This document shows positions 4,936-28,204 of a DNA stretch of 41,056 nucleotides, in pieces. The position numbers and the translations under genes were made by a program. The notes under the pieces are model-generated. The model was not told the origin of the DNA and made no database searches. It was given only the letters and a program-made list of their open reading frames with translations. The stretch is from a virus, in UHGV virus genome UHGV-1383708, one strand, 5' to 3'. The stretch's first letter is position 1; each line of letters begins with the position of its first letter.

Positions 4936-4950
4936 TTACCTTTCAGGTAA
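4936..4950. promoter_or_regulatory. Operator palindrome TTACC-TTTCA-GGTAA
   Basis: Perfect palindrome between tailspike start (4831) and small gene (5028). Confidence 0.6.
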
Positions 4951-5331: not shown

Positions 5332-5425
5332 ATTTACATTGCACTCCTCTTGTGCCATAGTAATCGGGCACTGGCAAAATCCAGTGCCGGGATTGGTCTC
5401 CCGGATTACTACAGAGGCACATATG

Positions 5426-5445
5426 CCGCATAAGCGGTTTTTTTA
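5426..5445 (+). terminator. Intrinsic terminator downstream of small LexA-box gene
   Basis: CCGC-ataa-GCGG hairpin followed by TTTTTTT. Confidence 0.5.
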
Positions 5446-5598
5446 TGTGTAAAGCGCACCTATTCTATGGTGGGCTGTGTGGGGGCACCGAAAGGTGCGC
5501 CGGGTTCCTTTGTAGCCGGTAAGACCAACTCTGCACAGTTCACCACCATCTGATTGGTCTCAGCGGTGGTGATTAACCTAACTACAAAGGTGATCGCT

Positions 5599-8481: not shown

Positions 8482-8553
8482 GTCGTTAATTCCTATACGT
8501 AGTTTTACGATACTGAAGCCCTGACGGTCTGGCCACCGTGGGGCTTCGCTGTT
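8482..8553 (+). ncRNA. Candidate sar-like antisense RNA covering the antirepressor translation start
   Basis: Plus-strand TTGATA-N17-TATACT promoter at 8447-8475 inside ant 5' end; hairpin GAAGCCC...GGGCTTC plus T-tract at 8515-8556. Confidence 0.4.
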
Positions 8554-9938: not shown

Positions 9939-12900
9939 TCACCGCATCACCGGATCCACCTGGTTTATTAGTGGCGCAATCCAGAACAGGTTATTGCCGG
10001 GTATCAGGGTTCGGACATTATGCACAATACGATCACCGGCATCACCATTCAACACTCCTGCGGTCACATCAATGATGCTATCCGCAAGACCAAATGACGG
10101 TCCGAATAGAGATCCTACGAATCCACGACTGGCATACCTAGACTGTGTGCCAGTGCCAAATAAAGCCCCCAGCCCAACAGCACCACCAGTAGCCTTTTCA
10201 GCCATATTGTTATATTCCATCAATGGCCCAAGAATACCGGATCTATCTATACCCTCAAGCACCAGCTTCTCTGGTGACCAGTCAACATTTTTCCCTTTCG
10301 ATGCTTCTTTAAGCGCATAGACCAGTGAGCCAAGAGCAATCTGAAATGCAGTGCCATAATAAAATTGCGCAGTTCCTTCCTGTAACCCACCAAGTAGCGC
10401 ACGGTTGTATGAAGCCGTTGTGAATGATTTAAACTGAAATATCGTTCGCCCCATTGGAGTACTCGCCCATAAAGGTGTGTCACCAATACCGGGGGTAATG
10501 ATAGTGTTATTAACGTCTTTCAGAACCGCTGACTGGAATACTCCGGCAACGTACTGATCGTCCCATTTATCAAAGTTACCAATGTGCCATCCATCAATTA
10601 CCTCACCATGTTTCTCGAACTCACTGCGAATACGCGCAGCCATATTGTCGTTGATACCGAGTTTTGCCATGCGACGTGCAGAAAACGCACCAGACAAAAT
10701 ACCGTCTGACGTGAGCATTCCGTTCATGGATTTGTTTATGTCATTAAATCGATCCATGAGTGTCAGCTTGCCGAAGGCATCAGTAATTCGCTCCATTCCT
10801 GCTTCGACTGCTGTTGTCCTGGAAGAACTGTCAACAAGATCACCAATTGCACGAGAACGTGAATGTAGTACAGTTTCCAATCCAATCCCCATCTTCAACA
10901 TCTCTTCTTTGCTGGCCTTAAATGCCGGTGATTGGGATATCTGAGAAGCATAGCCTTTCATGGAGTTACGGAAACCATTAACCATAACCCCTCTGGCCAG
11001 ATCTGGAATAGCTGATACTGTCATTCCACCGAGTTTTGTCGTGAAGTTCACATCCCGCAGAAAAGCGCCAGCACGAACAAAAAACGAAGACGGGTCATCA
11101 GGCATACCATATGTACCAACAAGACGATCGCGTAATGCTGTTATGTCTCTGAGATCATTTGCTCTTGATTTTGAAAGTCTGGACTGTTCTTTCCGTAATT
11201 CCTTTTCGTACTTTCGCATTAATGAATCGAGTTTACCCTGAGGAACAACTTCACCATTGCTCTCATAACGTGCTTTCAGATTTGCCACACTTTCGTCATA
11301 TTTTGCCTTTATTTTTTCAGGCACTTCCCGTAACAGACTGTCATATTCGTCCTCAATTAATTGCAGACGCTCTGTCATAGTTCGTTTGCCAAATGTTCTC
11401 GTCAACTCAATTTCTGCTGCCGCTTCACGGATATGACGTTGTAGAACGTAATTCACATCACTTTCGAGATAATCCCTGATAAGACTATCAGGCACATTTA
11501 ATGTTCTTTCTTTCGTACTACCTGCGGCTTTTACAGAAAATACGCTGACAAAATCCTGTGGAACCTTAGCACCAGTAATTTTATTAATTACGATATCCGC
11601 TGCAATTTCAGCATCCTCAGGATCCAGTGTTTTATTGCCTCTCGACCACCAGTCAACCAAAATACGTCGAAATTTATCGCGTTCACTGATTATTTTTCCA
11701 ACTTTATATATACGTGGGAAATAGCTTGCCTGGCCTAATGCTTTCAGTTCTTCATCTGGCGGCAATAAACCAAGCTTTTGCATTTCAACCTTCACCCGAT
11801 TTAATACAGTTCGCATCGCCTGCGCCGTTTCCTGAACAACAGGATTAGCATGCACATCACCGCTTCGCATAGCATTCCCAACCTGCTGACGAAATGAATC
11901 AAAACTCATGTCACCACCATCAGCTTTATACTTTGCGTATGCCTGTTTATTTCCGACAACAACAGCAGCTTCTTCACGCTGCCATCCACGTGTACGGGTT
12001 TCTACAGCTACCGGTGTTTCAATCCCCCTTTCATTTCCTTTAAGGGTGAAATTATTTTCGGCTAACTCCAGCGTTGTTTTTCGCACTGTCTTGGACGGAG
12101 ACTCCATTAACCTTGTCAAAGGAGTAAGATAGCTCCCTGCTTTCCATGCAGCCTTTCCAACCACCCCACCGGAAACAGGGGTTAAATCATCCAGAGTCGC
12201 TGTATCAATTTTCATAGCACCAACACTACCACCATCAGAAAGCGAAGCGGCAGCCCTGTCAGTCGCTGATGTAATGCTCATATTATCAAGAGCATCAGCA
12301 ACCTCACGCGTGGCTGCAGCCCGGACGGATGGCGAAAGCGCAACACCAGCACTGGCAAACACGCCGCTCATCATCGCACCCGCTGCAATGTGAGCGGCAC
12401 TTTCACCCCATGAGCGTGTTATTTGCTGATTATTCAGCACAACCTCGCTTAATGCTGTACCGGCTGCACCAATCGCAATCTGTGAGCCAATACGCGCCAG
12501 TGCCCCTCCTTGAGCACCGGGGATAAACATTGACGCAACAGTAACCGGATCCATTCCCGCAGCAATACTGGCAAGGGTTCCAACTACGCCAGCATCAGAC
12601 AATAAACGTCTGTCTTCATTTTCATCATCTATCTGCTGCTTAATCCACGCCGTTTCCTCTGGCGATCGGGAATCTGCAAATTTCGCCCCCCAGTATTCAT
12701 AACCGTGCAACTCATTTTTATCAGCATATGGGTTATAACCTTCGACCGGTTCAAACTGTCTGGCTGGTCGGAAAAAACCAGCCAGAATATTGTTCTGTCG
12801 CATTGCAGCCCCCCATACGGAAGGCTCCGGTGGCAATGGCTCAGGATTAGCCCCTTCCGGAAGGGCAACATCAAACCCAGTTTGTTCCGGCAAAACATTA

Positions 12901-12953
12901 CCTGACGGGATCAGTCCGTTATTAAGATCTTCAGCTTGTGCATAAACTGGCAT
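9939..12953 (-). CDS. Large internal virion/ejection protein (1004 aa)
   Basis: Last gene of structural block; start abuts upstream stop. Confidence 0.6.
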   Translation of the reverse strand: MPVYAQAEDLNNGLIPSGNVLPEQTGFDVALPEGANPEPLPPEPSVWGAAMRQNNILAGFFRPARQFEPVEGYNPYADKNELHGYEYWGAKFADSRSPEETAWIKQQIDDENEDRRLLSDAGVVGTLASIAAGMDPVTVASMFIPGAQGGALARIGSQIAIGAAGTALSEVVLNNQQITRSWGESAAHIAAGAMMSGVFASAGVALSPSVRAAATREVADALDNMSITSATDRAAASLSDGGSVGAMKIDTATLDDLTPVSGGVVGKAAWKAGSYLTPLTRLMESPSKTVRKTTLELAENNFTLKGNERGIETPVAVETRTRGWQREEAAVVVGNKQAYAKYKADGGDMSFDSFRQQVGNAMRSGDVHANPVVQETAQAMRTVLNRVKVEMQKLGLLPPDEELKALGQASYFPRIYKVGKIISERDKFRRILVDWWSRGNKTLDPEDAEIAADIVINKITGAKVPQDFVSVFSVKAAGSTKERTLNVPDSLIRDYLESDVNYVLQRHIREAAAEIELTRTFGKRTMTERLQLIEDEYDSLLREVPEKIKAKYDESVANLKARYESNGEVVPQGKLDSLMRKYEKELRKEQSRLSKSRANDLRDITALRDRLVGTYGMPDDPSSFFVRAGAFLRDVNFTTKLGGMTVSAIPDLARGVMVNGFRNSMKGYASQISQSPAFKASKEEMLKMGIGLETVLHSRSRAIGDLVDSSSRTTAVEAGMERITDAFGKLTLMDRFNDINKSMNGMLTSDGILSGAFSARRMAKLGINDNMAARIRSEFEKHGEVIDGWHIGNFDKWDDQYVAGVFQSAVLKDVNNTIITPGIGDTPLWASTPMGRTIFQFKSFTTASYNRALLGGLQEGTAQFYYGTAFQIALGSLVYALKEASKGKNVDWSPEKLVLEGIDRSGILGPLMEYNNMAEKATGGAVGLGALFGTGTQSRYASRGFVGSLFGPSFGLADSIIDVTAGVLNGDAGDRIVHNVRTLIPGNNLFWIAPLINQVDPVMR

Positions 12954-15670
12954 TATTTAGATCCCCACGAAAAGTAATCTTTAAATTTGTCCATACGTTC
13001 GTTATGCAGGCGCTGATACTGCTCATCCAGAGCGCGATGCTTGTCTTTGAAGTTTCGTATAGCCTGTCCACGCATAATTTCTTCCTGCTCGTACTGCTCC
13101 CGTTCCTGCTGCATTTTCTTATAAGGTTCCCAATCTTCTAGTGATGGTTCCCAACGCATAGGACGCCCATGTTTGTTATAAAACGGCTGGACCCGATCGA
13201 TGCCATTTTCATCCTTAGTTCTTACCATAATGGCGTAATCACCATTACGAGGTGTTAACACGTCAGGGGTTATGAATAATTCTCCATTAATACGACTCTC
13301 AGGGGTTTTTGTCTCAACTACAGGAGCATTACCTGACGTGATCCCAAGCAACGTCGGACTGGTTGTTATAATCTCTTTGCGCTCACCGTACATCAGCCGT
13401 TCTTTTTCAGCTTTCCACTGCGCCGCCTGCCAGCCTGACGGCCCATATTGATAAAGCGCCTCCGGTGCATATTTCATAAACTGCGCTTCTCCGTTAACCT
13501 CGCTGATACTCCAGGTGCGGGCTATCTGCTGGTTGGTCATTTGCTTCGCTACGTCAGCGTTACCACCAGCAACGCGGTAGTTAATGTCATACAGCGTCTG
13601 ATAGTCATTACGGAATCTAGCTGCTTCCGGCGTCTGGTCATCCGCAGACGGATCCCAACGGAACCACTGCGCCATATTGCTGACAGCAGAATTCATCGCC
13701 TTGCTGCGATTATTTTTGTACTCTTTTGAACTCTGCGTTGATGCCAATTGAGCTTTAAGAGCATCGGTCTGGTTGTACGTCAGGTTCTGCGCCTGCTCGA
13801 TAGCCGCATCAGCAGACATGCCAGAATCTGTTAGTTGCTTAACAGTCAGATAAAAACCCTGCATATCCTTCGGCATATTTCCAATAGATGCATTGTCTGT
13901 TTCATATAACCGACTAAACAAATTCGCTGCATTTTTAACCACTTCCTGATTGCTGGATCTGGATACTGCTGAAAGCTGCGTGATGACCTGCGAAGGCATG
14001 ATGCCAGTCTGAGCCACAAGCCGAACAACCCCATCATGAGTGGAGGCATCATTAATACGAAAGTTCTGCGCCATTTCTGTGTAATCAGCAGCTTTCTGCA
14101 TTGATTTGTTGCTTGGGTCTAATTTTTCACCTATTGTCAGCGCCTCATTGAATCTGCGTGAATCACGTTGCGCCTGAATTGCTTCATTTGATCGCTGAAG
14201 CAATGCAGACAATTTTCCGTAAGCATCGAGTTTTAACGCATAGTGAGGATCGTTAACCTCAGGCTTCACTTTCTGCATTTCTTCTTGCTGCTGAGAAGGA
14301 GGTAAATACTGAATTGCCTGGAATATTCTCGCGTTATCAATCGCTATATCCAGTTGATTGATTATTTTATCTGCATTTTTTCCATACCCCCTGATGATAG
14401 TCTCCTGAGCCGGTATATAATCTGGAACCTCACCGTTATATAGCTGGGCCATGGTGTTATTAATAGCTGGCTCAAGCTGTTCTAATATTAACTTCCTTTG
14501 CTTTTCTATCTGACTATTAGCAAGGTTATCTATTTGATAAATAGTCAGCGGATCCATTCCAGTTTTATTTTTTCTATATCGGGAAAGCCACCCTTGTGTT
14601 TCTGATGGAAGATTTCGGATAAATTCTTCTTCTGATATTTCACCTTTACGTGGATCACCGACTTTGGCGATCAGTTTATCCACGTTACCCATCCCCCAGT
14701 TATATGCTGCTCCGGTCAATATTTCGGAGCCGTACTTACCATACAGTTGATTTACATAGTCACTGGCGAGCATTTCATGCTGTTGTTCGTCCGTAGGGTT
14801 GTATTTAACGCCACGCTTGGCCGCCAGTTCTTTCCCTGTGCCCGGCATTAACTGGTATTTCCCCTGGGCTCTCTCTCCAGAAGATGTTATCGGTCCTTCA
14901 AGAAGACTACCATCAGGATTAAAATGTCGATCACCTGATTCAACAAGGCGTATGGCACGCATGTCCATGCCTCCAGAATCATTTTTCTGAAACAGACCAT
15001 TTAGCCATCCTTCTGGATTGGCAGCGGCATAATTCTTCGCCCGCATTTCTGTGGCACGGCGATCATCACTTTCTATTTCTTCCAGAATGCGTTCTTGTGA
15101 CCATCCCCTGGCAGCTCCATATCTGGCAATGGCTACCATTCTGGAATTTCTGGCTAAAGTGGCAGTTTGCGGGTCATTCCAGGCATCCGCTTCATTTTGT
15201 ATCCATAATTTTCTCGTTGCCTGATATTGCTCATCTTCATAGGCATTTGTCTGCCCTATCTCATGTCTGAGAACTCCAGTACTGAACTGAATTTTCTGTG
15301 TTCTGGCTTGTTGCAAAAACATATTTCTTGCTGCTTCATCAGTCAATGAAGCAGCTATTTCTTCCACATCCTGATCAAATCCAGATATGTACTCTTGCCC
15401 CTTACCAATCGCATTTTTGCCTTGTTGTGCATAAAAACCGGTTTGAGGGTTATAAAGACGTTCATTGCTGCGCTGATTAAGCTGAAGGATGGCATCCTGA
15501 GACAATGCAACATTCGCTTTCTGCCTGGCTTCACCATATGCCACCGCATACTGATCTGCGACATTCGCCAGCACCTGACCTGCTTGAGGAACATCGAAGG
15601 TCTGAAAACCACCGGTTTGCACACCACGACTTTGCACCTGGCGTCCGGATACTGTTGGTACGACTGGCAT
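12953..15670 (-). CDS. Internal virion/ejection protein with lytic transglycosylase (SLT) domain
   Basis: 905 aa from ATG 15670; motif ERAQGKYQLMPGTGKELAAKRGV ... AAYNWGMGNV typical of SLT domains. Confidence 0.75.
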   Translation of the reverse strand: MPVVPTVSGRQVQSRGVQTGGFQTFDVPQAGQVLANVADQYAVAYGEARQKANVALSQDAILQLNQRSNERLYNPQTGFYAQQGKNAIGKGQEYISGFDQDVEEIAASLTDEAARNMFLQQARTQKIQFSTGVLRHEIGQTNAYEDEQYQATRKLWIQNEADAWNDPQTATLARNSRMVAIARYGAARGWSQERILEEIESDDRRATEMRAKNYAAANPEGWLNGLFQKNDSGGMDMRAIRLVESGDRHFNPDGSLLEGPITSSGERAQGKYQLMPGTGKELAAKRGVKYNPTDEQQHEMLASDYVNQLYGKYGSEILTGAAYNWGMGNVDKLIAKVGDPRKGEISEEEFIRNLPSETQGWLSRYRKNKTGMDPLTIYQIDNLANSQIEKQRKLILEQLEPAINNTMAQLYNGEVPDYIPAQETIIRGYGKNADKIINQLDIAIDNARIFQAIQYLPPSQQQEEMQKVKPEVNDPHYALKLDAYGKLSALLQRSNEAIQAQRDSRRFNEALTIGEKLDPSNKSMQKAADYTEMAQNFRINDASTHDGVVRLVAQTGIMPSQVITQLSAVSRSSNQEVVKNAANLFSRLYETDNASIGNMPKDMQGFYLTVKQLTDSGMSADAAIEQAQNLTYNQTDALKAQLASTQSSKEYKNNRSKAMNSAVSNMAQWFRWDPSADDQTPEAARFRNDYQTLYDINYRVAGGNADVAKQMTNQQIARTWSISEVNGEAQFMKYAPEALYQYGPSGWQAAQWKAEKERLMYGERKEIITTSPTLLGITSGNAPVVETKTPESRINGELFITPDVLTPRNGDYAIMVRTKDENGIDRVQPFYNKHGRPMRWEPSLEDWEPYKKMQQEREQYEQEEIMRGQAIRNFKDKHRALDEQYQRLHNERMDKFKDYFSWGSK

Positions 15671-16215
15671 TATAATCCTCCGGGTAATCTGGTTCCTGCT
15701 GCTGCCCCGATTGGCGCAGGGGTGCTTTGAGTAAACGGACTCCACGTCCCACCAAACATCTGGTACGCACCGTATGCCTTCAGAGGCGCAGTGAGCAATG
15801 TTGTTGCTGATCCCACATTCCCCTGTTTACGGGCTGAACTGGCTTCTGCTTTATAGTTGGCAGCCTGAACCTGATAACCGTAAGCCTCGCGTTGCGCGTT
15901 ATTCACCGTCGTCAGAGAATCAAGAGCGCCAAACTGGGCAGTGTCGCCAAATATATCCAGCGCGTTACCTGTAGATAAATCAGCGCCGGTAGCCCCCATT
16001 GTCGCCGCCTGTGTACCAAGCCGCTGTCGGGTCTCTCTGCGCCGTTGCTCAGCTTCAGCGTTACCTCTGTTTATTGCATCATTTGCCTGAGCAGTGGCTA
16101 TATCTGCGTTCGCTTCTGCAACCTTCGAGGCATACTTTCCCTGTTGGTACTGGGTGTATGCCTGAATGCCACTCATGGCGAGCATTGCGCCACCAGCAAT
16201 AACCGGATCGCACAT
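15670..16215 (-). CDS. Internal virion protein (181 aa)
   Basis: Ala/Gln-rich; stop overlaps next start. Confidence 0.5.
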   Translation of the reverse strand: MCDPVIAGGAMLAMSGIQAYTQYQQGKYASKVAEANADIATAQANDAINRGNAEAEQRRRETRQRLGTQAATMGATGADLSTGNALDIFGDTAQFGALDSLTTVNNAQREAYGYQVQAANYKAEASSARKQGNVGSATTLLTAPLKAYGAYQMFGGTWSPFTQSTPAPIGAAAGTRLPGGL

Positions 16216-20474: not shown

Positions 20475-20912
20475 TTAACCAGTTACTTTTGAGCGGATCG
20501 GATACGGCGTATTGGCATCAACATCAAGACTGATACCAGCAGTGAATTCGCCAGCCGTTAGTGGGCCAGTTGCGACGGAGTAGTTAACACGCAGATATCG
20601 CTGAACACCGGCAGGCACCTTTGCAGAAACAACTCGTTTACCTGCTGTCAGGGCGGTCTTTGCCAGTGCGCCACTATCATAAATAGTGGTCCATGAGCTG
20701 TTATTCTCACTCGTCTGCAACTGGATGTTTACAGTTGCATCACCGCTTGCCGCGGCGGCTGTGTTAACCAGCGCCCAAAACTCAAGCGGGTAACCCACGC
20801 CGATATCACGACGTTTTCCGTCAATTGGACCGAGATCGATTACGTCAGTAGAAGCCGCGGTATTCGTAACCGCCTGAGCTTCGGAGAACATCAACAGTTT
20901 GTCGGTGATCAT
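20475..20912 (-). CDS. Virion structural protein (145 aa), possible capsid accessory
   Basis: Position after capsid gene. Confidence 0.5.
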   Translation of the reverse strand: MITDKLLMFSEAQAVTNTAASTDVIDLGPIDGKRRDIGVGYPLEFWALVNTAAAASGDATVNIQLQTSENNSSWTTIYDSGALAKTALTAGKRVVSAKVPAGVQRYLRVNYSVATGPLTAGEFTAGISLDVDANTPYPIRSKVTG

Positions 20913-20963
20913 CTTCTTTCTCCATTAGTGGGTCTGTTACGACCCACAGGTTAATAACAGGCG

Positions 20964-21956
20964 TTACACCACGCGGGCTTCTGTTTCCAGAAGCGCATCA
21001 GTTTCACGGATTGGTACACCACGGAATGAAGTCCACCACTCGCCTTCTGTCTCTTTTACGCTGATCGCCAGAGATGTTTTCTCCAGAGATTGCAGATCAA
21101 GAGCCTGGCCTACAGTGCGGTTCATGTAGAACACCGGGCGACCCATGCCACGATTTGGAATGCGATGCAGTGCTTTAACCATCAACTTCGCAATATTTGC
21201 GGCAGAGGAAGGTTCTGAAAGATTGCTGACATCGATGTTTGCAATGCGAACAACATAACGCCAGTCACGCAGAGCAAGTCCGTTGTCCCATTTGTAATGG
21301 GTACGGTAGCCTTCGTACTTGCCGCCATTCGCATCTTCCAGTGTCACCTGGCCTTTATCTTCCATCTGGATGCCAGCCTTCTGCCCTTTCGGGAAGATGC
21401 CATGCACGGTGTTTTCGCCCCACACCACTAACCAGATTGAGGTGTTATCTGTACCCGTGCCACCAGCATCAATGATGTTCTGAGCATTACCCGCAGACAG
21501 GCTGGAATAGCGGGAGGACAGTCCCATAAACTGCTGAGGGTTAACGCTGGAATCACCATAAAACAGCGTCTGCGCCATCTGCTGATTCATCGCTTCAATA
21601 AATGCGCGGTCTTCAGACAGGCGGAATTCAGCGGTATTGCCGTTCAGATCAGCCAGTGACTTATCGACTTCAGCATAGGTTTCCAGCATGCCAACGGAAT
21701 CGGTTACCTGCACTGTGGTTGATTTGCTTGGCTGTACGCCATAGTTCAGCAAACGCCAGGTAGCTGAAGGTAAACCAGAACGAATGGTGGTTCGGTGTCC
21801 GGTAGGAAGGTTCCCTTCGACAAAAGGCATATCCTGAAGGATCGGGTTAGTTTGACCGAGAAGCTCGATAATCTTATCGACTTTCCCGTTTGGATCGACG
21901 CGCTTACCCCAGTCAGCCAGCGTTAGCGCAGTTAAGCCTTTAACAGCCATTGTCAT
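20964..21956 (-). CDS. Major capsid protein
   Basis: 330 aa; follows scaffold candidate; AAGGAAATGACAATGGCT-type start context. Confidence 0.75.
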   Translation of the reverse strand: MTMAVKGLTALTLADWGKRVDPNGKVDKIIELLGQTNPILQDMPFVEGNLPTGHRTTIRSGLPSATWRLLNYGVQPSKSTTVQVTDSVGMLETYAEVDKSLADLNGNTAEFRLSEDRAFIEAMNQQMAQTLFYGDSSVNPQQFMGLSSRYSSLSAGNAQNIIDAGGTGTDNTSIWLVVWGENTVHGIFPKGQKAGIQMEDKGQVTLEDANGGKYEGYRTHYKWDNGLALRDWRYVVRIANIDVSNLSEPSSAANIAKLMVKALHRIPNRGMGRPVFYMNRTVGQALDLQSLEKTSLAISVKETEGEWWTSFRGVPIRETDALLETEARVV

Positions 21957-21964
21957 TTCCTCTC

Positions 21965-22666
21965 TTATTTGCCATAGAGCACTTCGGCCGCACTACGCTG
22001 GCCTTCATTACCACCGGTGACCATGCCATCTTCAGACATCGCCTTTCCGATTTTCACGAACGTTTTGACCAGATCAGGGTGATTACCCAGCCCGGTGGTG
22101 TTCAGATATTCTTTGAGTTCAGGTGTCCCGAACTGGTCAAGCGCACGCTGTGCGGCGCTAAGGTTAGAAATCAACTTGTCGCCACCGATTTCTTTGTCAG
22201 CTTTTACATCCGCAGCCCACTGCTCGGTTGTTTTCTGCCAGGCTTCTGCCTGGCGCTGCTGAACACCTGCCAGAATCTTCGGATAAGCATCAACCAGCTT
22301 TTGCGCTTGCTCGTTGGTCAGGTTAAGTTCTCGCGCCACAGGCTCGAATTCCTTCAACGCTTCTGTATCCAGCTCTACGCCTTCGGCAGCCTGAAACTCG
22401 TACTTCTCAGGCGCACCCTCTGGTTTATTGCCGTCCTTTTTTTCATCCTGCTTATCGTTTTCAGGCTTTTTGTCATCAGCAGGTTTATCGCCATCAGCAA
22501 CAGGTTGTGGCTTATCACCTTCCTGTTGTGATGGATCACCAACTGGAGCAGGGTTATCACCTGCAGGCGCTGACGGTTCTGACGCAGCCGGAGCTGCTCC
22601 ACCATCGACTGGTTGCTCATTGCAAAGACGGCGATACAGCAAACGCTCAAATAAATTCATGATCAC
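21965..22666 (-). CDS. Scaffolding protein candidate
   Basis: 233 aa; acidic Pro/Asp/Lys-rich low-complexity N-terminal half; immediately upstream of capsid gene. Confidence 0.55.
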   Translation of the reverse strand: MIMNLFERLLYRRLCNEQPVDGGAAPAASEPSAPAGDNPAPVGDPSQQEGDKPQPVADGDKPADDKKPENDKQDEKKDGNKPEGAPEKYEFQAAEGVELDTEALKEFEPVARELNLTNEQAQKLVDAYPKILAGVQQRQAEAWQKTTEQWAADVKADKEIGGDKLISNLSAAQRALDQFGTPELKEYLNTTGLGNHPDLVKTFVKIGKAMSEDGMVTGGNEGQRSAAEVLYGK

Positions 22667-22959
22667 TCCTGTTCACTGGCCTCTTTGGCCATCTTCAAAT
22701 ACTGTTCAGGGCAATGCGCCATAACGCGCTGAAACAGTTCCAGCGCCAGATTGCGTTGCCCCTCATTAAATGCCATTGCCATAGCGTCCATCGGTGAGAT
22801 AGCGGAAAACACACGGCCTTTCTCCAGCACCGACCAGACAACGCGACGCCCCTGTTCACTGCTCATGACAAAGCGAATGTCATCAATTTCACGCTGCGCC
22901 ATGTCACGTTGCTTACGGGCGTTTTCTTCTTTCAGTTGATCGTCTTCGTAATCTGTCAT
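22663..22959 (-). CDS. Hypothetical head-morphogenesis protein (98 aa)
   Basis: Start overlaps portal stop. Confidence 0.45.
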   Translation of the reverse strand: MTDYEDDQLKEENARKQRDMAQREIDDIRFVMSSEQGRRVVWSVLEKGRVFSAISPMDAMAMAFNEGQRNLALELFQRVMAHCPEQYLKMAKEASEQE

Positions 22960-24635
22960 TGTGATTGCCCACCCTGACCACTAACTGCATTCGCCATAGC
23001 TGACAAAACACTCGGATCCGAAGTTTTAGCTTCGCTTAGCGTCTTGGCACCCTGTGCCGCCGCCATTCCCATCGCCATCATTTGTTGCTGCTGTTGCTGC
23101 TGTGCCCGTTGCTGGCGAGCCTGCTCAACCTGTTCCTGCGGAACAATGACGGTTGGAGACACTCCGGACATATCAGCGAATGCATCGATCGCCTGATCAA
23201 CATTGAGTTTGTCGAGAGCTTCTGGTTTCGCTTGCGCAAGTTGACCAATGAAGTTGACCGTAGACGCCAGACTGGACAGGCCGATAGACTTCTGCGCCTG
23301 AGCCATGACGGAAATGTATTCGACCTTCAGGGGCATACCTTCCATCGCGTCAGGCGGTGGCGGCAGCATGTTTTTACGCACCATCATCGAGAAAGAGCGG
23401 TCAATGAGAGGATTAAGACATTCGTCGTTCAGACGCTCCAGAACCGGCCCCAACATCAGAAGTTTTTCTTCTTTCATTTCGATCACCGCTTCAACAGGCA
23501 TCGAGCGGGTATTGATGTTCTGCAACATCATGAACAGATCGACAAAGTAGGCGCTGTTAATGATTTGACGGGTGTCCTGAATGTCTGCCACCAAATCTGC
23601 TGTACTGGGGTTAACCAGATAAGCAGGCCTGAAACCATCCTGACCAGTAATCTGATCGATATACGTGATGTCGCCAGGAAGAAGGGAGGCACGCTGATTC
23701 TTGAGGGAAGTCGGAGCAACCATCGGCGGATTGGTGGCTTTATCAATCAACTCCGACTTGCGCTTCTGGAGAAGCTGCAATGCCTTAACAGGTCCAAGCG
23801 CCAGCATACCCGGGCATGATGATCCATAAACATCTTCACCGTTAACTTCCCAGCGCGGAGCCATAATTGGAAACTCATCGAATCCGGACTCACGCAACAA
23901 CTTGTCGTTATCGCCACCAACCTCGTAATAAACCGATTTGAATGGCTTGTTCTTGCTATCCAGCTTCGATGTATCGCGGTCAATGTTCGGGTAAACCGAA
24001 TGCATCACTTCAATCCACTTCTCGTAGGTGCCGCTTTCCCACATGCTTTTTACGGATTCGCTGACGTTATTTAGCCCGAACTCCTGAACAAGCTGACGAA
24101 CAGTCATAGAGAACTTGCGAAAACAGGTGTCCACACTGCCACGAGGTGAGTTAGCCAGGTAGTAACTGCCTATCGGGAATGGCATTGTGCGAATGATGTC
24201 CTCGTCATCCTCCAGCACTGCCATTGCACCAGTGCTGTATGTGCCGAGGCTTCCGTATAACTGCGGCAGCGACTGATAGAGATTCGACTTATTGAACATA
24301 TCGTTCATACGGTTCTGCACCGCCTCAAGCCACAACTTAACAGGGCCATAATCCATCATTTCAGGATCTGGCGTAGCCAGGCGAAACCACGGACGCGCGG
24401 GGCTTGTGATGCCTGACATCATGCCGCTGGCGAGAGTGCGCGCCGCCATAGTCCCGGTCGAATCAATAATGCGTGTATTGCGTCGATCGTTACGGTTGAC
24501 CTCAGAAGTCAGAAAGCGGGAACCACGCGGGTTGATGTAATCACTCAACTCGCGCCAGTGCGGCTCGAACGACTGACGCTCGCTTTCAAGTTGTGCGAAC
24601 TGTTTGTTCAATCGCTCTTTAGTTGTTTCCGCCAT
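22956..24635 (-). CDS. Portal protein
   Basis: 559 aa; position directly after terminase large subunit; acidic glutamine-rich C-terminus. Confidence 0.8.
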   Translation of the reverse strand: MAETTKERLNKQFAQLESERQSFEPHWRELSDYINPRGSRFLTSEVNRNDRRNTRIIDSTGTMAARTLASGMMSGITSPARPWFRLATPDPEMMDYGPVKLWLEAVQNRMNDMFNKSNLYQSLPQLYGSLGTYSTGAMAVLEDDEDIIRTMPFPIGSYYLANSPRGSVDTCFRKFSMTVRQLVQEFGLNNVSESVKSMWESGTYEKWIEVMHSVYPNIDRDTSKLDSKNKPFKSVYYEVGGDNDKLLRESGFDEFPIMAPRWEVNGEDVYGSSCPGMLALGPVKALQLLQKRKSELIDKATNPPMVAPTSLKNQRASLLPGDITYIDQITGQDGFRPAYLVNPSTADLVADIQDTRQIINSAYFVDLFMMLQNINTRSMPVEAVIEMKEEKLLMLGPVLERLNDECLNPLIDRSFSMMVRKNMLPPPPDAMEGMPLKVEYISVMAQAQKSIGLSSLASTVNFIGQLAQAKPEALDKLNVDQAIDAFADMSGVSPTVIVPQEQVEQARQQRAQQQQQQQMMAMGMAAAQGAKTLSEAKTSDPSVLSAMANAVSGQGGQSQ

Positions 24636-24649
24636 TTCAATGACTCCGG

Positions 24650-24856
24650 TTACTGACCAAGCAGCGTTTTACCGCTGGTATTAGCGGTTGATGTGTCGCC
24701 CTGAGAACCGGTAAGCAGCGTAGAACTACGACCAGCAGCAGCGCGACGGCGACGAGTTTCTTCGTCGCGGGCATCAACAACGGCGGCATCCTGCTCCTGT
24801 GGTGCTGCCTGAACTTCTGGTGTTGCAGGCACTGATGGTGAGCTACCCATGCACAT
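24650..24856 (-). CDS. Hypothetical small protein (68 aa) between terminase and portal
   Basis: GGAG RBS; ends 15 nt before portal start. Confidence 0.4.
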   Translation of the reverse strand: MCMGSSPSVPATPEVQAAPQEQDAAVVDARDEETRRRRAAAGRSSTLLTGSQGDTSTANTSGKTLLGQ

Positions 24857-24946
24857 ATCAATGACTCCGTACGCAATTAAATTATTACCAATTTAACCAC
24901 ATATGATTTATTTATCGTAGATGGTTGACATTTAATGCACGAATTA

Positions 24947-24961
24947 TTACCCTTCAGGTAA
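24947..24961. promoter_or_regulatory. Operator palindrome TTACC-CTTCA-GGTAA
   Basis: Perfect palindrome 17 nt downstream of a TTGACA hexamer (24925-24930). Confidence 0.55.
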
Positions 24962-25282
24962 GTAAATAGTTCATTCCGGTTATTAACCTGACTGGCTTGT
25001 CGTTAAATTGAACAGGTGGAGTGAGCTTTTATTTTGAGCAGTACGGCGTATGGCACATGCGCCGATAGCGGTCTGGATACGTTTAAGGGGCACCCTCCCT
25101 TGCTCGGGCAAACGAACCAGGTAGCCGGAATGTGCAAGTCGAGCGGTTTTATTCCGCGCACGGGGATTCACCATCCCGGCGATTCGGTGTGACGCCTCGG
25201 AAGAGACGAGGGTGCAACGATGAGAGCATTTATGGAGCCGCGACAAAGTGTGGCGCCTTAACAGGCTAAGTGCTCTCAGCGT

Positions 25283-25359
25283 TGTGGCATTAGCTCAGTT
25301 GGACAGAGCAACCGCCTTCTAAGCGGTTGGTCGCAGGTTCGAATCCTGCATGCCACGCC
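25283..25359 (+). tRNA. tRNA-Arg (anticodon UCU), argU-like
   Basis: 77 nt; 7-bp acceptor stem GTGGCAT/ATGCCAC; anticodon stem ACCGC/GCGGT with loop CTTCTAA; T-loop TTCGAAT; encoded 3' CCA. Confidence 0.85.
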
Positions 25360-25403
25360 AGAATCACGCCTAAGGACCGTGATGCCAGAAGTTCCAGGGG
25401 CTT

Positions 25404-25446
25404 GGCGGTGATGGTTTCCCTTGAAGGACTATCACCGCCCTTTTTA
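25404..25446 (+). terminator. Intrinsic terminator downstream of tRNA-Arg
   Basis: GGCGGTGAT ... ATCACCGCC long hairpin followed by CTTTTT. Confidence 0.55.
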
Positions 25447-25522
25447 CAGCAGGACGCCATTGCGATGACTTCATGCTGTAAACCAGTACAGCCACGGAAG
25501 GCATAACTCATTGCTTCCAGTT

Positions 25523-25546
25523 CGCCCGGTTCGCCGGGCATTTTTT
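25523..25546 (+). terminator. Intrinsic terminator immediately upstream of gene 25564
   Basis: GCCCGG-ttcg-CCGGGC hairpin followed by ATTTTTTT. Confidence 0.6.
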
Positions 25547-25563
25547 TAAGGTGAGATTAGACT

Positions 25564-25935
25564 ATGAGTGACAAAGACATTGAATCTGAAATTCAGGCTA
25601 AAGGTTTAGCCGCGCCGCGCGTTACGCCAGACCATATCGAGAGCATTATTGCTCAGGAGGCATATTTCACAGCAGAAGATGGTGTCTTTGGCGTAGCCAT
25701 AAAAGCGAAACATACTGGCGGAGAGGTAAACTACCAGCCGCACGAATCACTTTCTCTGCTGACGTTCTGCGTTCTGGTGCTGCGCAACGGCTTCACCGTC
25801 ACCGGAGAGAGCGCCTGTGCAAGCCCGGAAAACTTTGATGCGGAAATTGGTCGGAAGATTGCCCGGCAGAATGCTGTAAACAAAATCTGGATGCTTGAAG
25901 GTTACTTGCTGAAGCAGAAGTTAAGCGAGCAATAA
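25564..25935 (+). CDS. Hypothetical protein (123 aa), opposite-strand insert in the late region
   Basis: AAGGTGAG RBS; flanked by terminators on both sides; opposite to surrounding late genes. Confidence 0.55.
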   Translation: MSDKDIESEIQAKGLAAPRVTPDHIESIIAQEAYFTAEDGVFGVAIKAKHTGGEVNYQPHESLSLLTFCVLVLRNGFTVTGESACASPENFDAEIGRKIARQNAVNKIWMLEGYLLKQKLSEQ

Positions 25936-25939
25936 CACC

Positions 25940-25951
25940 GTGACATGTCAC
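25940..25951. repeat. Perfect 12-bp palindrome GTGACATGTCAC (copy 2)
   Basis: Exact; 4 nt upstream of terminator hairpin. Confidence 0.8.
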
Positions 25952-25955
25952 AAAC

Positions 25956-25982
25956 AGCCAGCCGATGAGCTGGCTTTGTTTT
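25956..25982 (+). terminator. Intrinsic terminator after gene 25564-25935
   Basis: AGCCAGC-cgatga-GCTGGCT hairpin then TTGTTTT. Confidence 0.6.
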
Positions 25983-26025
25983 ATCCTCACCAGAGGATAT
26001 CTCCGTCATTATCCCCGCTAACGGA

Positions 26026-27501
26026 TTAAGCATAGGGATCGTAATCTGTAATGGCCTTGCCTTGCTGGTTCTGCTGCCCGGGAATTCGCAGACGCTTAGA
26101 CACAGGGAACGCAAACGTCAGCAGTAGCGCATCGCCTTTACCCGGCGAACGCCCAAGCCGCTCCTTGATATCTTCCTTCGGTTCGATAACGATTTTACCG
26201 TCCACTCGAACTTTGTACTCTGCCGCCGACAGGTCGTCTGCTGTTTCCTGGTCATCCAGCATCCCGCCCAGCCTCAGCCATGTCTTGCATGAGTTGAACA
26301 TCTCCCCACGCTTGTTGAGCATCTGCGGGTCAGTAGACGCGCCACCGAACGGAACAAGTTGCCATGTACGACCCCAGCCGTCACCGATTGACTTCAGACC
26401 AGTTCCGTAACCGAAGTCGATGAACACTGCGTCAGCCTGGTACTGGTCTTCAAAGTCAGCGATACGCTTCGCCATTATCAGATCGTCAGTGGTCTTGTTG
26501 CCAGTCCACAGCACCTTACTGTGCAGCCCCTGCCGCAGGTATATCACAGCGTCATCAACTCCGGAGTATGCCGGGTCAACGCCGATTATCACCGGAGCAT
26601 GTGCAACCTGCGCAGCGGTTACCACCCGTTTCATTGCCTCATCAGTAAGACCGGTAGGGATAAACTGCAATTCAGATGCATCAGGGAATATGCCGCGCAC
26701 ACGGATTTTAACGAAGTCGCTGTCTTCCCCGTAGTCATCAACCCATTTCTGCAACTGCTGTTTGTTAGTACCTTCCACCGTCCGGCTGTCAATCTGCGCA
26801 GTTTTCCAGCGGTGTTTGTATTTGCGGAAACATTCGCGAAAACGCCCGGTATTACGTGTAGGGTTTCCGAACGCCACCCAGATAATCTCAGTGTCTTCGT
26901 CCGTAAGCGCACCCTCAGCAACTTCCCACACCAGATCCGCAATGTTCGACGCTTCATCGAATACCACGATGATGCGTTTGCGCTCGTTGTGTAGTCCGGC
27001 GAATGCCTCAGTGTTGTGCTCAGACCAGGGGATTGCGTCAGCTCGCCACCGCTTGTCGTGCCCAGGATCATTGCTGTACATCGCAGTAGCGGTACAGGTA
27101 AACCAGTCTTTCGTGATAGCAAGGTTCGACCACTTGATAATTTCCGGCCAGGTCTTCGTTCGTAGCTGGTTGTCGGTGTTGGCGGTCACCACGACCTTAC
27201 AATCCTCGCAAGTGGACATGCCCCAGTTGATCAGCATTGAGATGAATGCGGATTTACCAATACCGTGACCAGAAGCGCGTGCCAGCATAAGCGGCTGATA
27301 GCGCGTCTCTGGATTCTGCAGGTGATCACGTATCTCTCGGAACGCATCAGCCTGCCACTGACGTGGGCCGGTAGCATGTGCCAGTTCAGTCCCCTCTTCC
27401 CCCCACGGGAACGCATAGAGGGCATAGCCAAGCGGATCGTGAGTGAACCCTGCAATATCCTCGATCAACTGCTCTTCAGGAGATAACGCTGTATCTGTCA
27501 C
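26026..27501 (-). CDS. Terminase large subunit
   Basis: 491 aa; ATPase region then nuclease region (VIIGVDPAYSG...); follows terS. Confidence 0.85.
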   Translation of the reverse strand: MTDTALSPEEQLIEDIAGFTHDPLGYALYAFPWGEEGTELAHATGPRQWQADAFREIRDHLQNPETRYQPLMLARASGHGIGKSAFISMLINWGMSTCEDCKVVVTANTDNQLRTKTWPEIIKWSNLAITKDWFTCTATAMYSNDPGHDKRWRADAIPWSEHNTEAFAGLHNERKRIIVVFDEASNIADLVWEVAEGALTDEDTEIIWVAFGNPTRNTGRFRECFRKYKHRWKTAQIDSRTVEGTNKQQLQKWVDDYGEDSDFVKIRVRGIFPDASELQFIPTGLTDEAMKRVVTAAQVAHAPVIIGVDPAYSGVDDAVIYLRQGLHSKVLWTGNKTTDDLIMAKRIADFEDQYQADAVFIDFGYGTGLKSIGDGWGRTWQLVPFGGASTDPQMLNKRGEMFNSCKTWLRLGGMLDDQETADDLSAAEYKVRVDGKIVIEPKEDIKERLGRSPGKGDALLLTFAFPVSKRLRIPGQQNQQGKAITDYDPYA

Positions 27502-28094
27502 TGATTACCATCCTGACGTTCTTTGAGTCGCTTCCTGGCTGCCGCTATGCGATCAGCAATTGTCACATTCACATTAACATCCAGGCGTTCTTTGAATGCA
27601 TTGACGTCGACGTGCTTACCAATCAGTTCGAGGTTCTTCACCTTGTCAGGCCATTTAATTTTTTTGAGAATTGTCTCTATCGAATCCTCGTTCATGTTCA
27701 TGATGGTCGATGACAGATCAAAGCCACTAAGCGTAGTGCGCCAGATTTTCGGCCACTCGCGGATTGGCTTAAGGCTCCCATCGTCATTGAGGATATCAAT
27801 CACGTCCATCTGGTCGATCTCCACCAGGCGCATGAGAACGTAATCGGCACTGACGCGCATTCGTTTGTTGCGCTCCTCCATCAACTCGGCAATCCGTTTT
27901 TGAATGCGTTCATCGCGCATCATGACACTGGCTTTAACTGCCGCTGTATTTGGGGAGAATCCTGCGTTAATCGCTGCCTGAGTCTGGTTTTCAGGCGTTT
28001 TGATGTATGACTGGCAATAAGCCTCCTGCATTGCGGTTAGTGGCTTAAATTGCGTTGATTTGCGTTTATAGGTTTTAGGTTCAGCAGGCATCAT
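27498..28094 (-). CDS. Terminase small subunit
   Basis: MQEAYCQSYIKTPENQTQAAINAGFSPNTAAVKASVMMRDERIQKRIAEL typical of Terminase_2-type small subunits; overlaps terL start. Confidence 0.75.
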   Translation of the reverse strand: MMPAEPKTYKRKSTQFKPLTAMQEAYCQSYIKTPENQTQAAINAGFSPNTAAVKASVMMRDERIQKRIAELMEERNKRMRVSADYVLMRLVEIDQMDVIDILNDDGSLKPIREWPKIWRTTLSGFDLSSTIMNMNEDSIETILKKIKWPDKVKNLELIGKHVDVNAFKERLDVNVNVTIADRIAAARKRLKERQDGNQ

Positions 28095-28134
28095 AACCAC
28101 CGTGGTAATAGTTACCGTTGTGGTAATAGTACCA

Positions 28135-28163
28135 TGCAAAATAAAGCCGCCATAGTTGGCGGC
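28135..28163 (-). terminator. Intrinsic terminator upstream of terminase small subunit gene
   Basis: GCCGCC-N6-GGCGGC hairpin followed by UUUAUUUU on minus strand. Confidence 0.55.
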
Positions 28164-28204
28164 AGTATTCAAAACCCATCAAATTCATCATGCATAATCT
28201 ACTC

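Follow-up and report, generated by a model that had tools for sequence, protein, structure and literature searches.

A conserved, mobile RNA core beside a tRNA-Arg(UCU) gene in an epsilon15-like phage recurs in lambdoid and P1-like phages

The genome of the virus UHGV-1383708, analysed at its full length of 41,056 nucleotides (nt) and called the window below, holds at 25043–25213 a structured, mobile RNA, here named the core. This element is a member of an uncatalogued RNA family common to epsilon15-like phages, SfV-like lambdoid phages, and P1/P7. In the window, it forms part of a repressor-controlled accessory transcription unit (24925–25982) of a phiV10/epsilon15-like temperate podophage, probably expressed early, since its promoter would be under repressor control. 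The non-coding first ~490 nt of this unit are modular and comprise, in this order, a variable 5′ hairpin, the core (helices P1 to P5), helix P6, a tRNA-Arg(UCU), and a small RNA (sRNA)-like trailer that reaches the terminator T1. A second terminator, T2, and a gene of the gp49/66 family follow downstream of T1.

The structure—helices P1, P2, P4, P5, and P6, together with a pseudoknot—was placed by hand on an alignment of 28 diverse sequences (A2). Standard pairs occupy 94.8% of its cells, compared to 26–47% when the 3′ partners are slid by one to three columns, and changes on both sides are found in 18 out of 41 pairs. None of 500 shuffles reached the observed pairing, the covariation score, or the count of compensated pairs. 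Mutual information over all column pairs was dominated by phylogeny, and helped only in spotting the pseudoknot pair. Conserved G–U pairs imply that the fold exists on the plus strand only, which is the strand of the tRNA, and the folding z-score of the leader on this strand is −2.9. A preliminary description of this region had proposed that the sequence upstream of the tRNA could be a second structured RNA or a processing substrate, a suspicion borne out by this conserved, covarying fold. The same description called the leader GC-rich and structured; the latter holds, whereas a GC content of 0.53–0.59 makes it only mildly GC-rich.

One segment of the core, a 19-mer, is near-invariant. A scan anchored on a different block found it to differ by rare single bases only, and its invariance is therefore not a sampling artefact. 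A relationship of this segment with the ops element of RfaH was considered and discarded: its GGTAGC resembles GGCGGTAGnnTG over a 6-mer only, with an extra base in between. An nhmmer profile of the core finds one copy in the window (25042–25218, E-value 8e-37). None of the 4227 models of Rfam 15—which include GOLLD, ROOL, riboswitches, T-box, tmRNA, RNase P, and 6S—matches 25043–25283 at E ≤ 10, nor do any match the cores of mEp460, P1, BUCT708, and a Klebsiella phage at E ≤ 1; gathering and permissive Rfam scans of the region return the tRNA alone. No description of the core was retrieved from the literature by keyword or literal-sequence search. The 77-nt RNA svsR, located at the 3′ end of cI, is different from it (PMC12803456), as is the 66-nt prophage sRNA HnrS (PMC13502914).

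When the leader alone is used as blastn query, ~25043–25287 matches unannotated DNA at 70–84% identity in phages otherwise unlike phiV10. Among them are the SfV-like lambdoid phages mEp460, cdtI, twelve Stx2c-converting phages, Ayreon, and 2H10. Further carriers are P1, P7, and other P1-like phages, as well as phages of Klebsiella, Enterobacter, and Salmonella, and one phage listed under Stenotrophomonas. The core is present at 70–100% identity in 89 phage records, and in about one third of the complete genomes of Escherichia coli (1840 out of 5426), where it occupies 1920 chromosomal and 554 plasmid places. At these loci, the PGAP annotation gives nothing except the tRNA. The 19-mer retrieves at least 120 IMG/VR contigs, plus prophages in many genera of Enterobacteriaceae. 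The flanks differ between hosts, while the core keeps 70–85% identity. No second copy was found elsewhere in the window, in mEp460 from 24 to 44.5 kilobases (kb), or after PR. One contig, the only such case seen, bears tandem copies on the same strand, ~650 nt apart (L028, 3997–4153 and 4799–4958; L numbers denote relatives of the locus).

In the lambdoid phages, the order of elements is the same in 11 out of 11 loci: the stop codon of a cI-type repressor gene is followed by an intrinsic terminator of its own, by operators shared with the cI–cro region (OR) together with TTGAC(A/C), and then by the core. This fixed order indicates that the core is the first element transcribed from PL, and that it is not transcribed from PRM. 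The repressors consist of HTH_3 and Peptidase_S24 domains, and belong to several unrelated sequence types (at least four). The corresponding place after OL/PL is taken by nutL and N in lambda, and by putL in HK022. The annotation of mEp460 includes no N gene, and Pfam scans of a few of the first downstream open reading frames (ORFs) gave no match. Between PL and the core, two relatives of different immunity types (L026 and L099) bear a further conserved non-coding block of ~290 nt (CATCAACAGCGAACAGGCAGGACGCCCACGAAG...), and L184 has a related stretch.

In P1 and P7, the core consists of helices P1–P5 only. It is part of the C1-controlled ban operon, with trnI 14 nt upstream of it and ban ~100 nt downstream. 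In epsilon15-like phages, it follows the operator-promoter. Between operator and core, relatives have 28 to 224 nt, the shortest distance being that of SPN1S-type phages. The genes downstream of the core are always co-oriented with it, and 67 of 82 variants have terminator-like sites, often two strong ones, in the 400 nt behind it, as compared with 111 of 261 random controls. The neighbouring tRNA is variable: among 132 loci, a tRNA-Arg follows the core in 30, starting inside P6, a tRNA-Ile2 precedes it in 18, ending ~14 nt upstream, and no tRNA is adjacent in the remaining 84. Consequently, the treatment of the structured RNA as a leader of the tRNA, as in the preliminary description, has to be abandoned in favour of an independent, widespread module.

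Comparisons of loci with and without the core delimit the mobile unit. Among 80 IMG/VR loci encoding a protein 100% identical to mEp460 gp35, the core is present in 44 and absent from 36, and 33–34 of the latter keep the same P8 strands/helix and terminator. In loci devoid of the core, PL runs straight into GUUGUGGUGAAUGCG, or the 5′ hairpin is joined directly to the P6 strand. Through a deletion between short repeats (TTCCCTTGA), two relatives of the epsilon15 type (L158, at 1755–1830, and L168) have lost the tRNA together with most of the core and the 5′ half of T1, and retain T2 and the downstream gene. The gp35 and deletion comparisons thus define the mobile unit as helices P1–P5, ~170 nt, the form found in P1-type phages and in L163. 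Helix P6, whose strands persist in relatives without the core, belongs to an older leader and not to the mobile core.

A further helix, P8, is formed by the conserved 3′ end GUUGUGG(UG) and a complementary (CA)CCACAAC located 60–180 nt downstream. Of 75 variants without tRNA, 48 possess this partner, compared to 9.5% among shuffled targets, and in one lineage the two strands have changed together (GUGU/ACAC). Pairing of GUUGUGG with the downstream CCACAAC excludes its pairing with ACAAC in the 5′ strand of P6, and vice versa. In tRNA-bearing members, the acceptor stem GUGGCAU/AUGCCAC occupies the exact place of P8. In this, the tRNA of the window differs from argU-type genes, since its acceptor stem is fused in register to the conserved GUUGUGG of the leader. 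Tyrion, a phage of the same genus, carries at the same locus the core with a non-tRNA, helix-closed domain in place of the tRNA. This domain was tested as a degenerate tRNA and rejected, as ARAGORN with default and -ps settings found nothing, -ps80 gave noise only, and the Rfam tRNA model did not match. Because the tRNA sits exactly where relatives hold such a domain, it is a later passenger in the unit. An older sRNA-like leader, ending at the terminator, has accommodated the core and the tRNA as separate inserts, each of them optional.

The surroundings of P6 are also variable. The inserts enclosed by this helix have been swapped between lineages (L143, for instance, combines a Klebsiella-type core with a window-type insert), and those of L007 (SPN1S) and L011 (Stx2a_1447) hold two T-arm-like hairpins, CUGGUUCAAUUCCAG and GUCAGUUCGAUUCGGAC. 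The sequence that epsilon15-like phages have immediately 5′ of the core (24996–25042 in the window; also in L008, L010, and L014), GGAGUG(C/A)GCUUUCAGGUGUG, repeats the motif of the P6 3′ strand just upstream of helix P1, so that the P6 5′ strand has two potential partners.

Regarding function, the reading favoured here, with a probability of roughly 0.4, is that of a cargo RNA, produced early and exerting its effect in trans. Like the tRNA, the core would use a strongly expressed early non-coding unit as its expression platform, and in this phage it would be set free as a separate molecule of ~325 nt by RNase P cutting at the 5′ end of the tRNA (25283/25284). The folded, doubly knotted body would then present near-invariant single-stranded segments—among them the 19-mer and the GGAAGAG loop—to a partner. 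The near-invariance of these unpaired segments suggests the binding of a conserved host partner, on which the released core would act in trans early in infection. The core keeps accessory company: PF13876 and Tad2-like genes, tciABC and tRNAs in P1, and an RprA-like trailer. Such neighbours (rare-codon tRNAs, the Tad2-like gene, gp49/66, tciABC, and the RprA-like sRNA) would suggest a role in translation, in counter-defence, or in taking over the host, and not in a step essential to the phage. In its behaviour the core is tRNA-like, being optional, horizontally exchanged with sharp boundaries, and located beside processing sites.

Several features weigh against a cargo RNA. No member has a terminator of its own directly after the core, which in P1 is the plain 5′ untranslated region of ban, and the lambdoid phages hold no tRNA to release it. 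The alternative pairing of GUUGUGG is switch-like. Moreover, the constant position of the core upstream of and co-stranded with genes, together with the excess of terminator-like sites behind it, fits a leader acting in cis.

Control of termination in cis is the main rival explanation, and is considered possible, if somewhat less probable than the cargo RNA. According to it, the nascent core would let the early transcript pass the terminators that follow (T1 and T2 in the window, tL in lambdoid phages), either constitutively, as the put RNA of HK022, or conditionally, as a ligand- or factor-sensing switch operating through the P6/P8 pairings. The location of the core at the nutL/N or putL place, conserved under at least four repressor types in phages where no N was detected by the scans mentioned above, is in agreement with this mechanism. 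So are the enrichment of terminator-like sites, the co-orientation of the downstream genes, and the presence in the window of a real gene behind T1 and T2, with no promoter-like site between T1 and that gene. The two exclusive partners of GUUGUGG, the downstream one being frequent and covarying, and the invariant junctions and pseudoknot, which are typical of aptamers, also argue for it.

However, the 36 core-less gp35 loci hold the same terminator and the same gene, for which reason a requirement for terminator read-through, once favoured, has been downgraded. Similarly, the epsilon15-type phages that lost the core kept T2 and the gene behind it. There is one copy of the core per phage and none after PR, whereas HK022 has both putL and putR, to which the core exhibits no sequence similarity. 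With regard to riboswitches, the core is aptamer-like and offers the alternative P6/P8 pairing, but the terminators lie 70–180 nt away, outside the conserved core and without overlapping it, so that it would hardly be a classical riboswitch platform. The downstream genes are functionally unrelated (helicase, recombination, anti-defence), and no strong terminator follows the core in P1.

The remaining explanations are effectively excluded. It is very improbable that the core has no present function, being a selfish element or the decaying leftover of, for example, a tRNA array or an att site, or that it acts as DNA, as a single-strand origin or a protein-binding site, and not as RNA. The T-arm-like hairpins of some variable inserts and the mobile, optional nature of the module would fit this explanation, but compensatory changes keep five helices and the pseudoknot across lineages at 70–85% identity, the 19-mer is near-invariant, and the orientation relative to transcription is constant; in addition, these phages are not known to have a single-stranded DNA stage. 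Even less credit can be given to an ordinary 5′ leader or processing substrate serving only the maturation or expression of tRNA-Arg. P6 does overlap the first 2 nt of the tRNA, which follows directly in 30 loci, but most loci hold no adjacent tRNA, Tyrion has a non-tRNA domain at the same locus, and in P1 the core comes after the tRNA and not before it.

The possibility that the region encodes a small protein, as annotated for phiV10 (hypothetical proteins), mEp460 (gp37), and Tyrion (gp54), is negligible: ORFs of 45–87 codons exist on both strands of the core region, and some are annotated in records, but no frame is open across the 28 representatives, the variable columns are spread evenly over codon positions (55, 55, and 57, without 3-periodicity), 144 of 235 gap runs in the core are not divisible by three in length, and RefSeq has dropped phiV10p05. 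The ORFs between operator and tRNA are short and unconserved, those on both strands are unlike proteins, and no Hok-like peptide was found among them, as anticipated in the preliminary description, where the leader was said to lack convincing coding capacity. The annotated phiV10p04, mEp460 gp37, and Tyrion gp54 are very probably spurious. Such hypothetical proteins are annotated over the antisense strand of the tRNA and over the core (in the window, 25290–25541 and 24983–25246, both on the minus strand; in L003, 2443–2811; in L010, 1601–1762).

Among known systems, the core resembles the put/nut leaders and GOLLD/ROOL by context, and is a member of neither by sequence and fold. The put RNA, an RNA-only processive antiterminator of the N-less lambdoid phage HK022, of ~70 nt and two stem-loops, binds the zinc-binding domain of the β′ subunit and suppresses termination in cis. 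Like putL and putR, the core is non-coding, structured, and located just downstream of PL in phages showing no N, with terminators downstream. Unlike put, it comprises ~170–245 nt with a pseudoknot, exists as a single copy instead of two, and is optional among otherwise identical phages. Neither blastn-short nor the nhmmer profile gave a core match in the HK022 genome, and binding of the polymerase by the core, as in put, is hypothetical.

With lambda nutL and N, the core shares the position at the head of the PL transcript. The 3′ strand of P6, UGCUCU(UU), resembles boxA, and is followed in many members by a hairpin whose loop, GGCUGA, is conserved. A boxA/boxB/N interpretation was nevertheless rejected, as the boxA-like strand is paired in P6, with covariation, and is variable (UGCGCU, UGCCCU). 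A single-stranded boxA consensus, (C/U)GCUCUU(U)A, is absent from the window, which has UGCUCUCAG, and from other members, which have UGCGCUUCC or UGCCCUUUC. A candidate MRRLMR ORF of 25 codons, Arg-rich, over the GGCUGA hairpin is not conserved in the tails read by eye, and the sequence after PR showed no further nut-like copy.

Phages of Gram-positive bacteria carry GOLLD and ROOL, large structured RNAs of unknown function whose genes lie clustered with tRNA genes. The core is likewise phage-borne, ornate, non-coding, and optional, and lies beside tRNA genes in 48 of 132 loci. In contrast to them, it is much smaller, belongs to phages of Enterobacterales, is always at the head of an early operon, and does not match their Rfam models. 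The C4 RNA of P1/P7 and the CI RNA of P4 are leader-derived phage RNAs cut out by RNase P. The core is also derived from an operon leader, and RNase P would define one of its ends; nevertheless, it is unrelated to both in sequence and fold, and no complementary target sites were identified. On these grounds, the core is rated as a new family within a known broad kind, that of phage leader or cargo RNAs.

As to the promoter of the unit, the TTGACA hexamer and the operator named in the preliminary description are present where it placed them, and their layout, GTAG-N4-TTGAC(A/C)-N15-ATTACC-N5-GGTAA, is conserved in 33 distinct relatives, with drift in the sequence of the 15-nt spacer. A strict sigma-70 scan of 24000–26200 returned neither a full promoter nor a canonical −10. 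The −10 must therefore be a weak TACCCT, which a 17-nt spacer from TTGACA would place inside the operator, and which agrees with the consensus at three of six positions. The TTACC-N5-GGTAA palindrome occurs 18 times in the window (10 exact sites and 8 with one mismatch), compared to 0.72 in shuffles, none of 100 reaching 18, and it is thus a real, dispersed operator-type site. The same operator is found at the same place in epsilon15-like phages (including a Salmonella phage), SPN1S-like phages, Tyrion, and Klebsiella phages. Both the number of sites and the conserved position identify it as an operator of the epsilon15-like repressor type, a palindrome repeated at phage promoters, and it agrees with a 17-base-pair inverted repeat reported for epsilon15. 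The operator is probably bound by the phage repressor.

Sites of this type lie at 4936, 5317, 6377, 24947, 28112 (and 28094), 32605, 32667, 34998, 35710, and 35772, among them the start of the terminase/late-gene block and the immunity regions. This scattering suggests a P1-like scheme, in which one repressor serves many dispersed sites. Matches to isrK-like, C4 antisense, and sar RNAs, the last one barely above threshold, are located at 5368–5444, 5463–5550, and 8483–8550, and together indicate an immI-type antirepressor control module. The pair C4 and isrK is also present in mEp460, and C4 in P1, so that all three groups of phages carrying the core have C4 modules.

The tRNA and the terminators are ordinary elements, already annotated in sister phages. 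ARAGORN predicts a single tRNA gene in the window, a tRNA-Arg with anticodon TCT, and Rfam RF00005 places it in the tRNA family at 73.3 bits (E-value 2.5e-14; gathering score 29); the two agree on the identity and UCU anticodon previously proposed. It has the standard cloverleaf and the anticodon of E. coli argU and of phage tRNA-Arg(UCU) genes. The usage of AGA and AGG, counted in a rough set of ORFs from the window, is 8.6 and 5.5 per 1000 codons. AGA occurs mainly in tail and early genes, with 10–14 codons per gene in the large tail and injection genes (2531–4831 and 9939–15745), and is absent from the head, portal, and terminase genes (20475–28172). The rationale advanced for the tRNA, decoding of AGA, is in keeping with these figures in tail and early genes, and not in head genes, and the usage is compatible with the usual rare-codon explanation for phage tRNAs. 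A newer idea is that phage tRNAs offset tRNA-targeting defences, and the AGA pattern is compatible with it too. Megablast matches to a 1.1-kb query of the region include 64 records of Synechococcus phages, most matches being in the 80–90% identity band and presumably covering the tRNA.

The trailer that follows the tRNA—a hairpin, a single-stranded stretch, and T1—is homologous to the sequence after P8 in other members. T1 and T2 both consist of a GC-rich hairpin and a T run, typical of intrinsic terminators, so that the strong terminator expected after the tRNA is found along with a second one. In 18 out of 157 related loci the trailer is RprA-like, consisting of UGCUGUGUGUAGUCUUGGC and a terminator. 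RprA is an Hfq-dependent sRNA, and the likeness concerns the trailer and not the core. The trailer of L009 (1631–1750) scores 50.2 bits over the full RF00034 model, below its threshold of 70. In the window, the hairpin and T1 are homologous to these trailers, whereas the single-stranded stretch differs and RprA is not matched at E ≤ 10. It may be that phages mimic a host sRNA with trailers of this kind.

Over the 1.1 kb around the core, identity amounts to 99.2% with Escherichia phage phiV10 as well as with the O157 typing phages 9 and 10; phiV10 belongs to the genus Uetakevirus of epsilon15-like temperate podophages. The preliminary description had a plus-strand unit interrupting a minus-strand late operon; the unit, with its promoter/operator, tRNA, and two terminators, indeed stands within the minus-strand block of head genes, between the large terminase gene (26026–27501) on one side and a small gene (24650–24856) and the portal gene (22956–24635) on the other. 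Its end, set at 25446 in the preliminary description, has to be moved, since the unit is probably longer and includes the PF13876 gene beyond the two terminators, in the absence of a promoter-like site in between. In the Klebsiella relative L008 (2011–2532), a protein with a Tad2-like (Thoeris anti-defence) domain fills the slot of this gp49/66-family gene. The features of the unit are collected in Table 1.

Table 1. Features of the plus-strand unit, with positions in the window
Feature	Position	Strand	Basis and remarks
−35 hexamer TTGACA	24925-24930	+	Read from sequence; kept as TTGAC(A/C) in relatives
Operator ATTACCCTTCAGGTAAG	24946-24962		Palindrome TTACC-N5-GGTAA = TTACCCTTCAGGTAA at 24947-24961; overlaps the presumed −10 and transcript start
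Variable 5′ leader, predicted long hairpin, optional	24960-25042	+	Minimum free energy fold
Conserved mobile RNA core (P1-P5, ~170 nt)	25043-25213	+	Alignments A1 and A2, pair counts, nhmmer profile
P1 hairpin	25044-25064	+	CGGCRUAU-GGCAC-AUGYGCCG
P2 helix	25072-25076 with 25117-25121	+	Alignment
19-mer GGUAGCCGGAAUGUGCAAG (as DNA GGTAGCCGGAATGTGCAAG), near-invariant	25120-25138	+	Alignment
P3 hairpin, variable	Within core	+	Alignment
P4 hairpin	25163-25177	+	Alignment
Pseudoknot, P4 loop CACC with GGUG	25169-25172 with 25186-25189	+	Alignment
P5 hairpin, GGAAGAG loop	25195-25211	+	Alignment
P6 helix enclosing variable insert	25214-25285 (25214-25228 with 25271-25285)	+	6 of 13 pairs covary; last 2 nt overlap the tRNA
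tRNA-Arg(UCU), encoded CCA	25284-25360	+	ARAGORN; Rfam RF00005; annotated as tRNA-Arg in related phage records
Trailer hairpin AUCACG...CGUGAU	25363-25383	+	Homologous to the hairpin after the P8 domain in tRNA-less members, e.g., L060 and L009
Intrinsic terminator T1, 3′ end of sRNA-like trailer	25404-25445	+	14 pairs (7 GC), then CTTTTT
Intrinsic terminator T2	25524-25547	+	6 GC pairs, then ATTTTTTT; retained in the epsilon15-type deletion variant
Accessory ORF, 123 amino acids, Phage_gp49_66 family	25564-25935	+	Pfam PF13876, E-value 2.4e-35; Shine–Dalgarno GGTGAG
Terminator-like hairpin ending the plus-strand unit	25956-25982	+	Terminator scan; annotated terminator in phiV10

P1, the Stx-converting phages, and the epsilon15-like phages are well studied, and yet this covarying, pseudoknotted RNA at the head of their early transcripts has neither an Rfam model nor an annotation. 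Its prevalence, its conservation, and the ready-made natural controls give the core its interest: natural variants with and without it have identical flanks, and its function is thus directly testable. The balance leans slightly towards a new functional class of phage RNA, either an RNA-only substitute for N/nut in many lambdoid, P1, and epsilon15-like phages, or a decoy RNA, expressed early, by which a conserved machine or defence of the host is disabled. Should RNA polymerase be the target of the core, early antitermination would have a second RNA-based solution, structurally unrelated to the put RNA of HK022. Should the core act in trans, the enigmatic tRNA-linked phage RNAs would have a counterpart in enterobacteria, and the core would be a candidate for an RNA-based factor of takeover or counter-defence, in hosts that are tractable.

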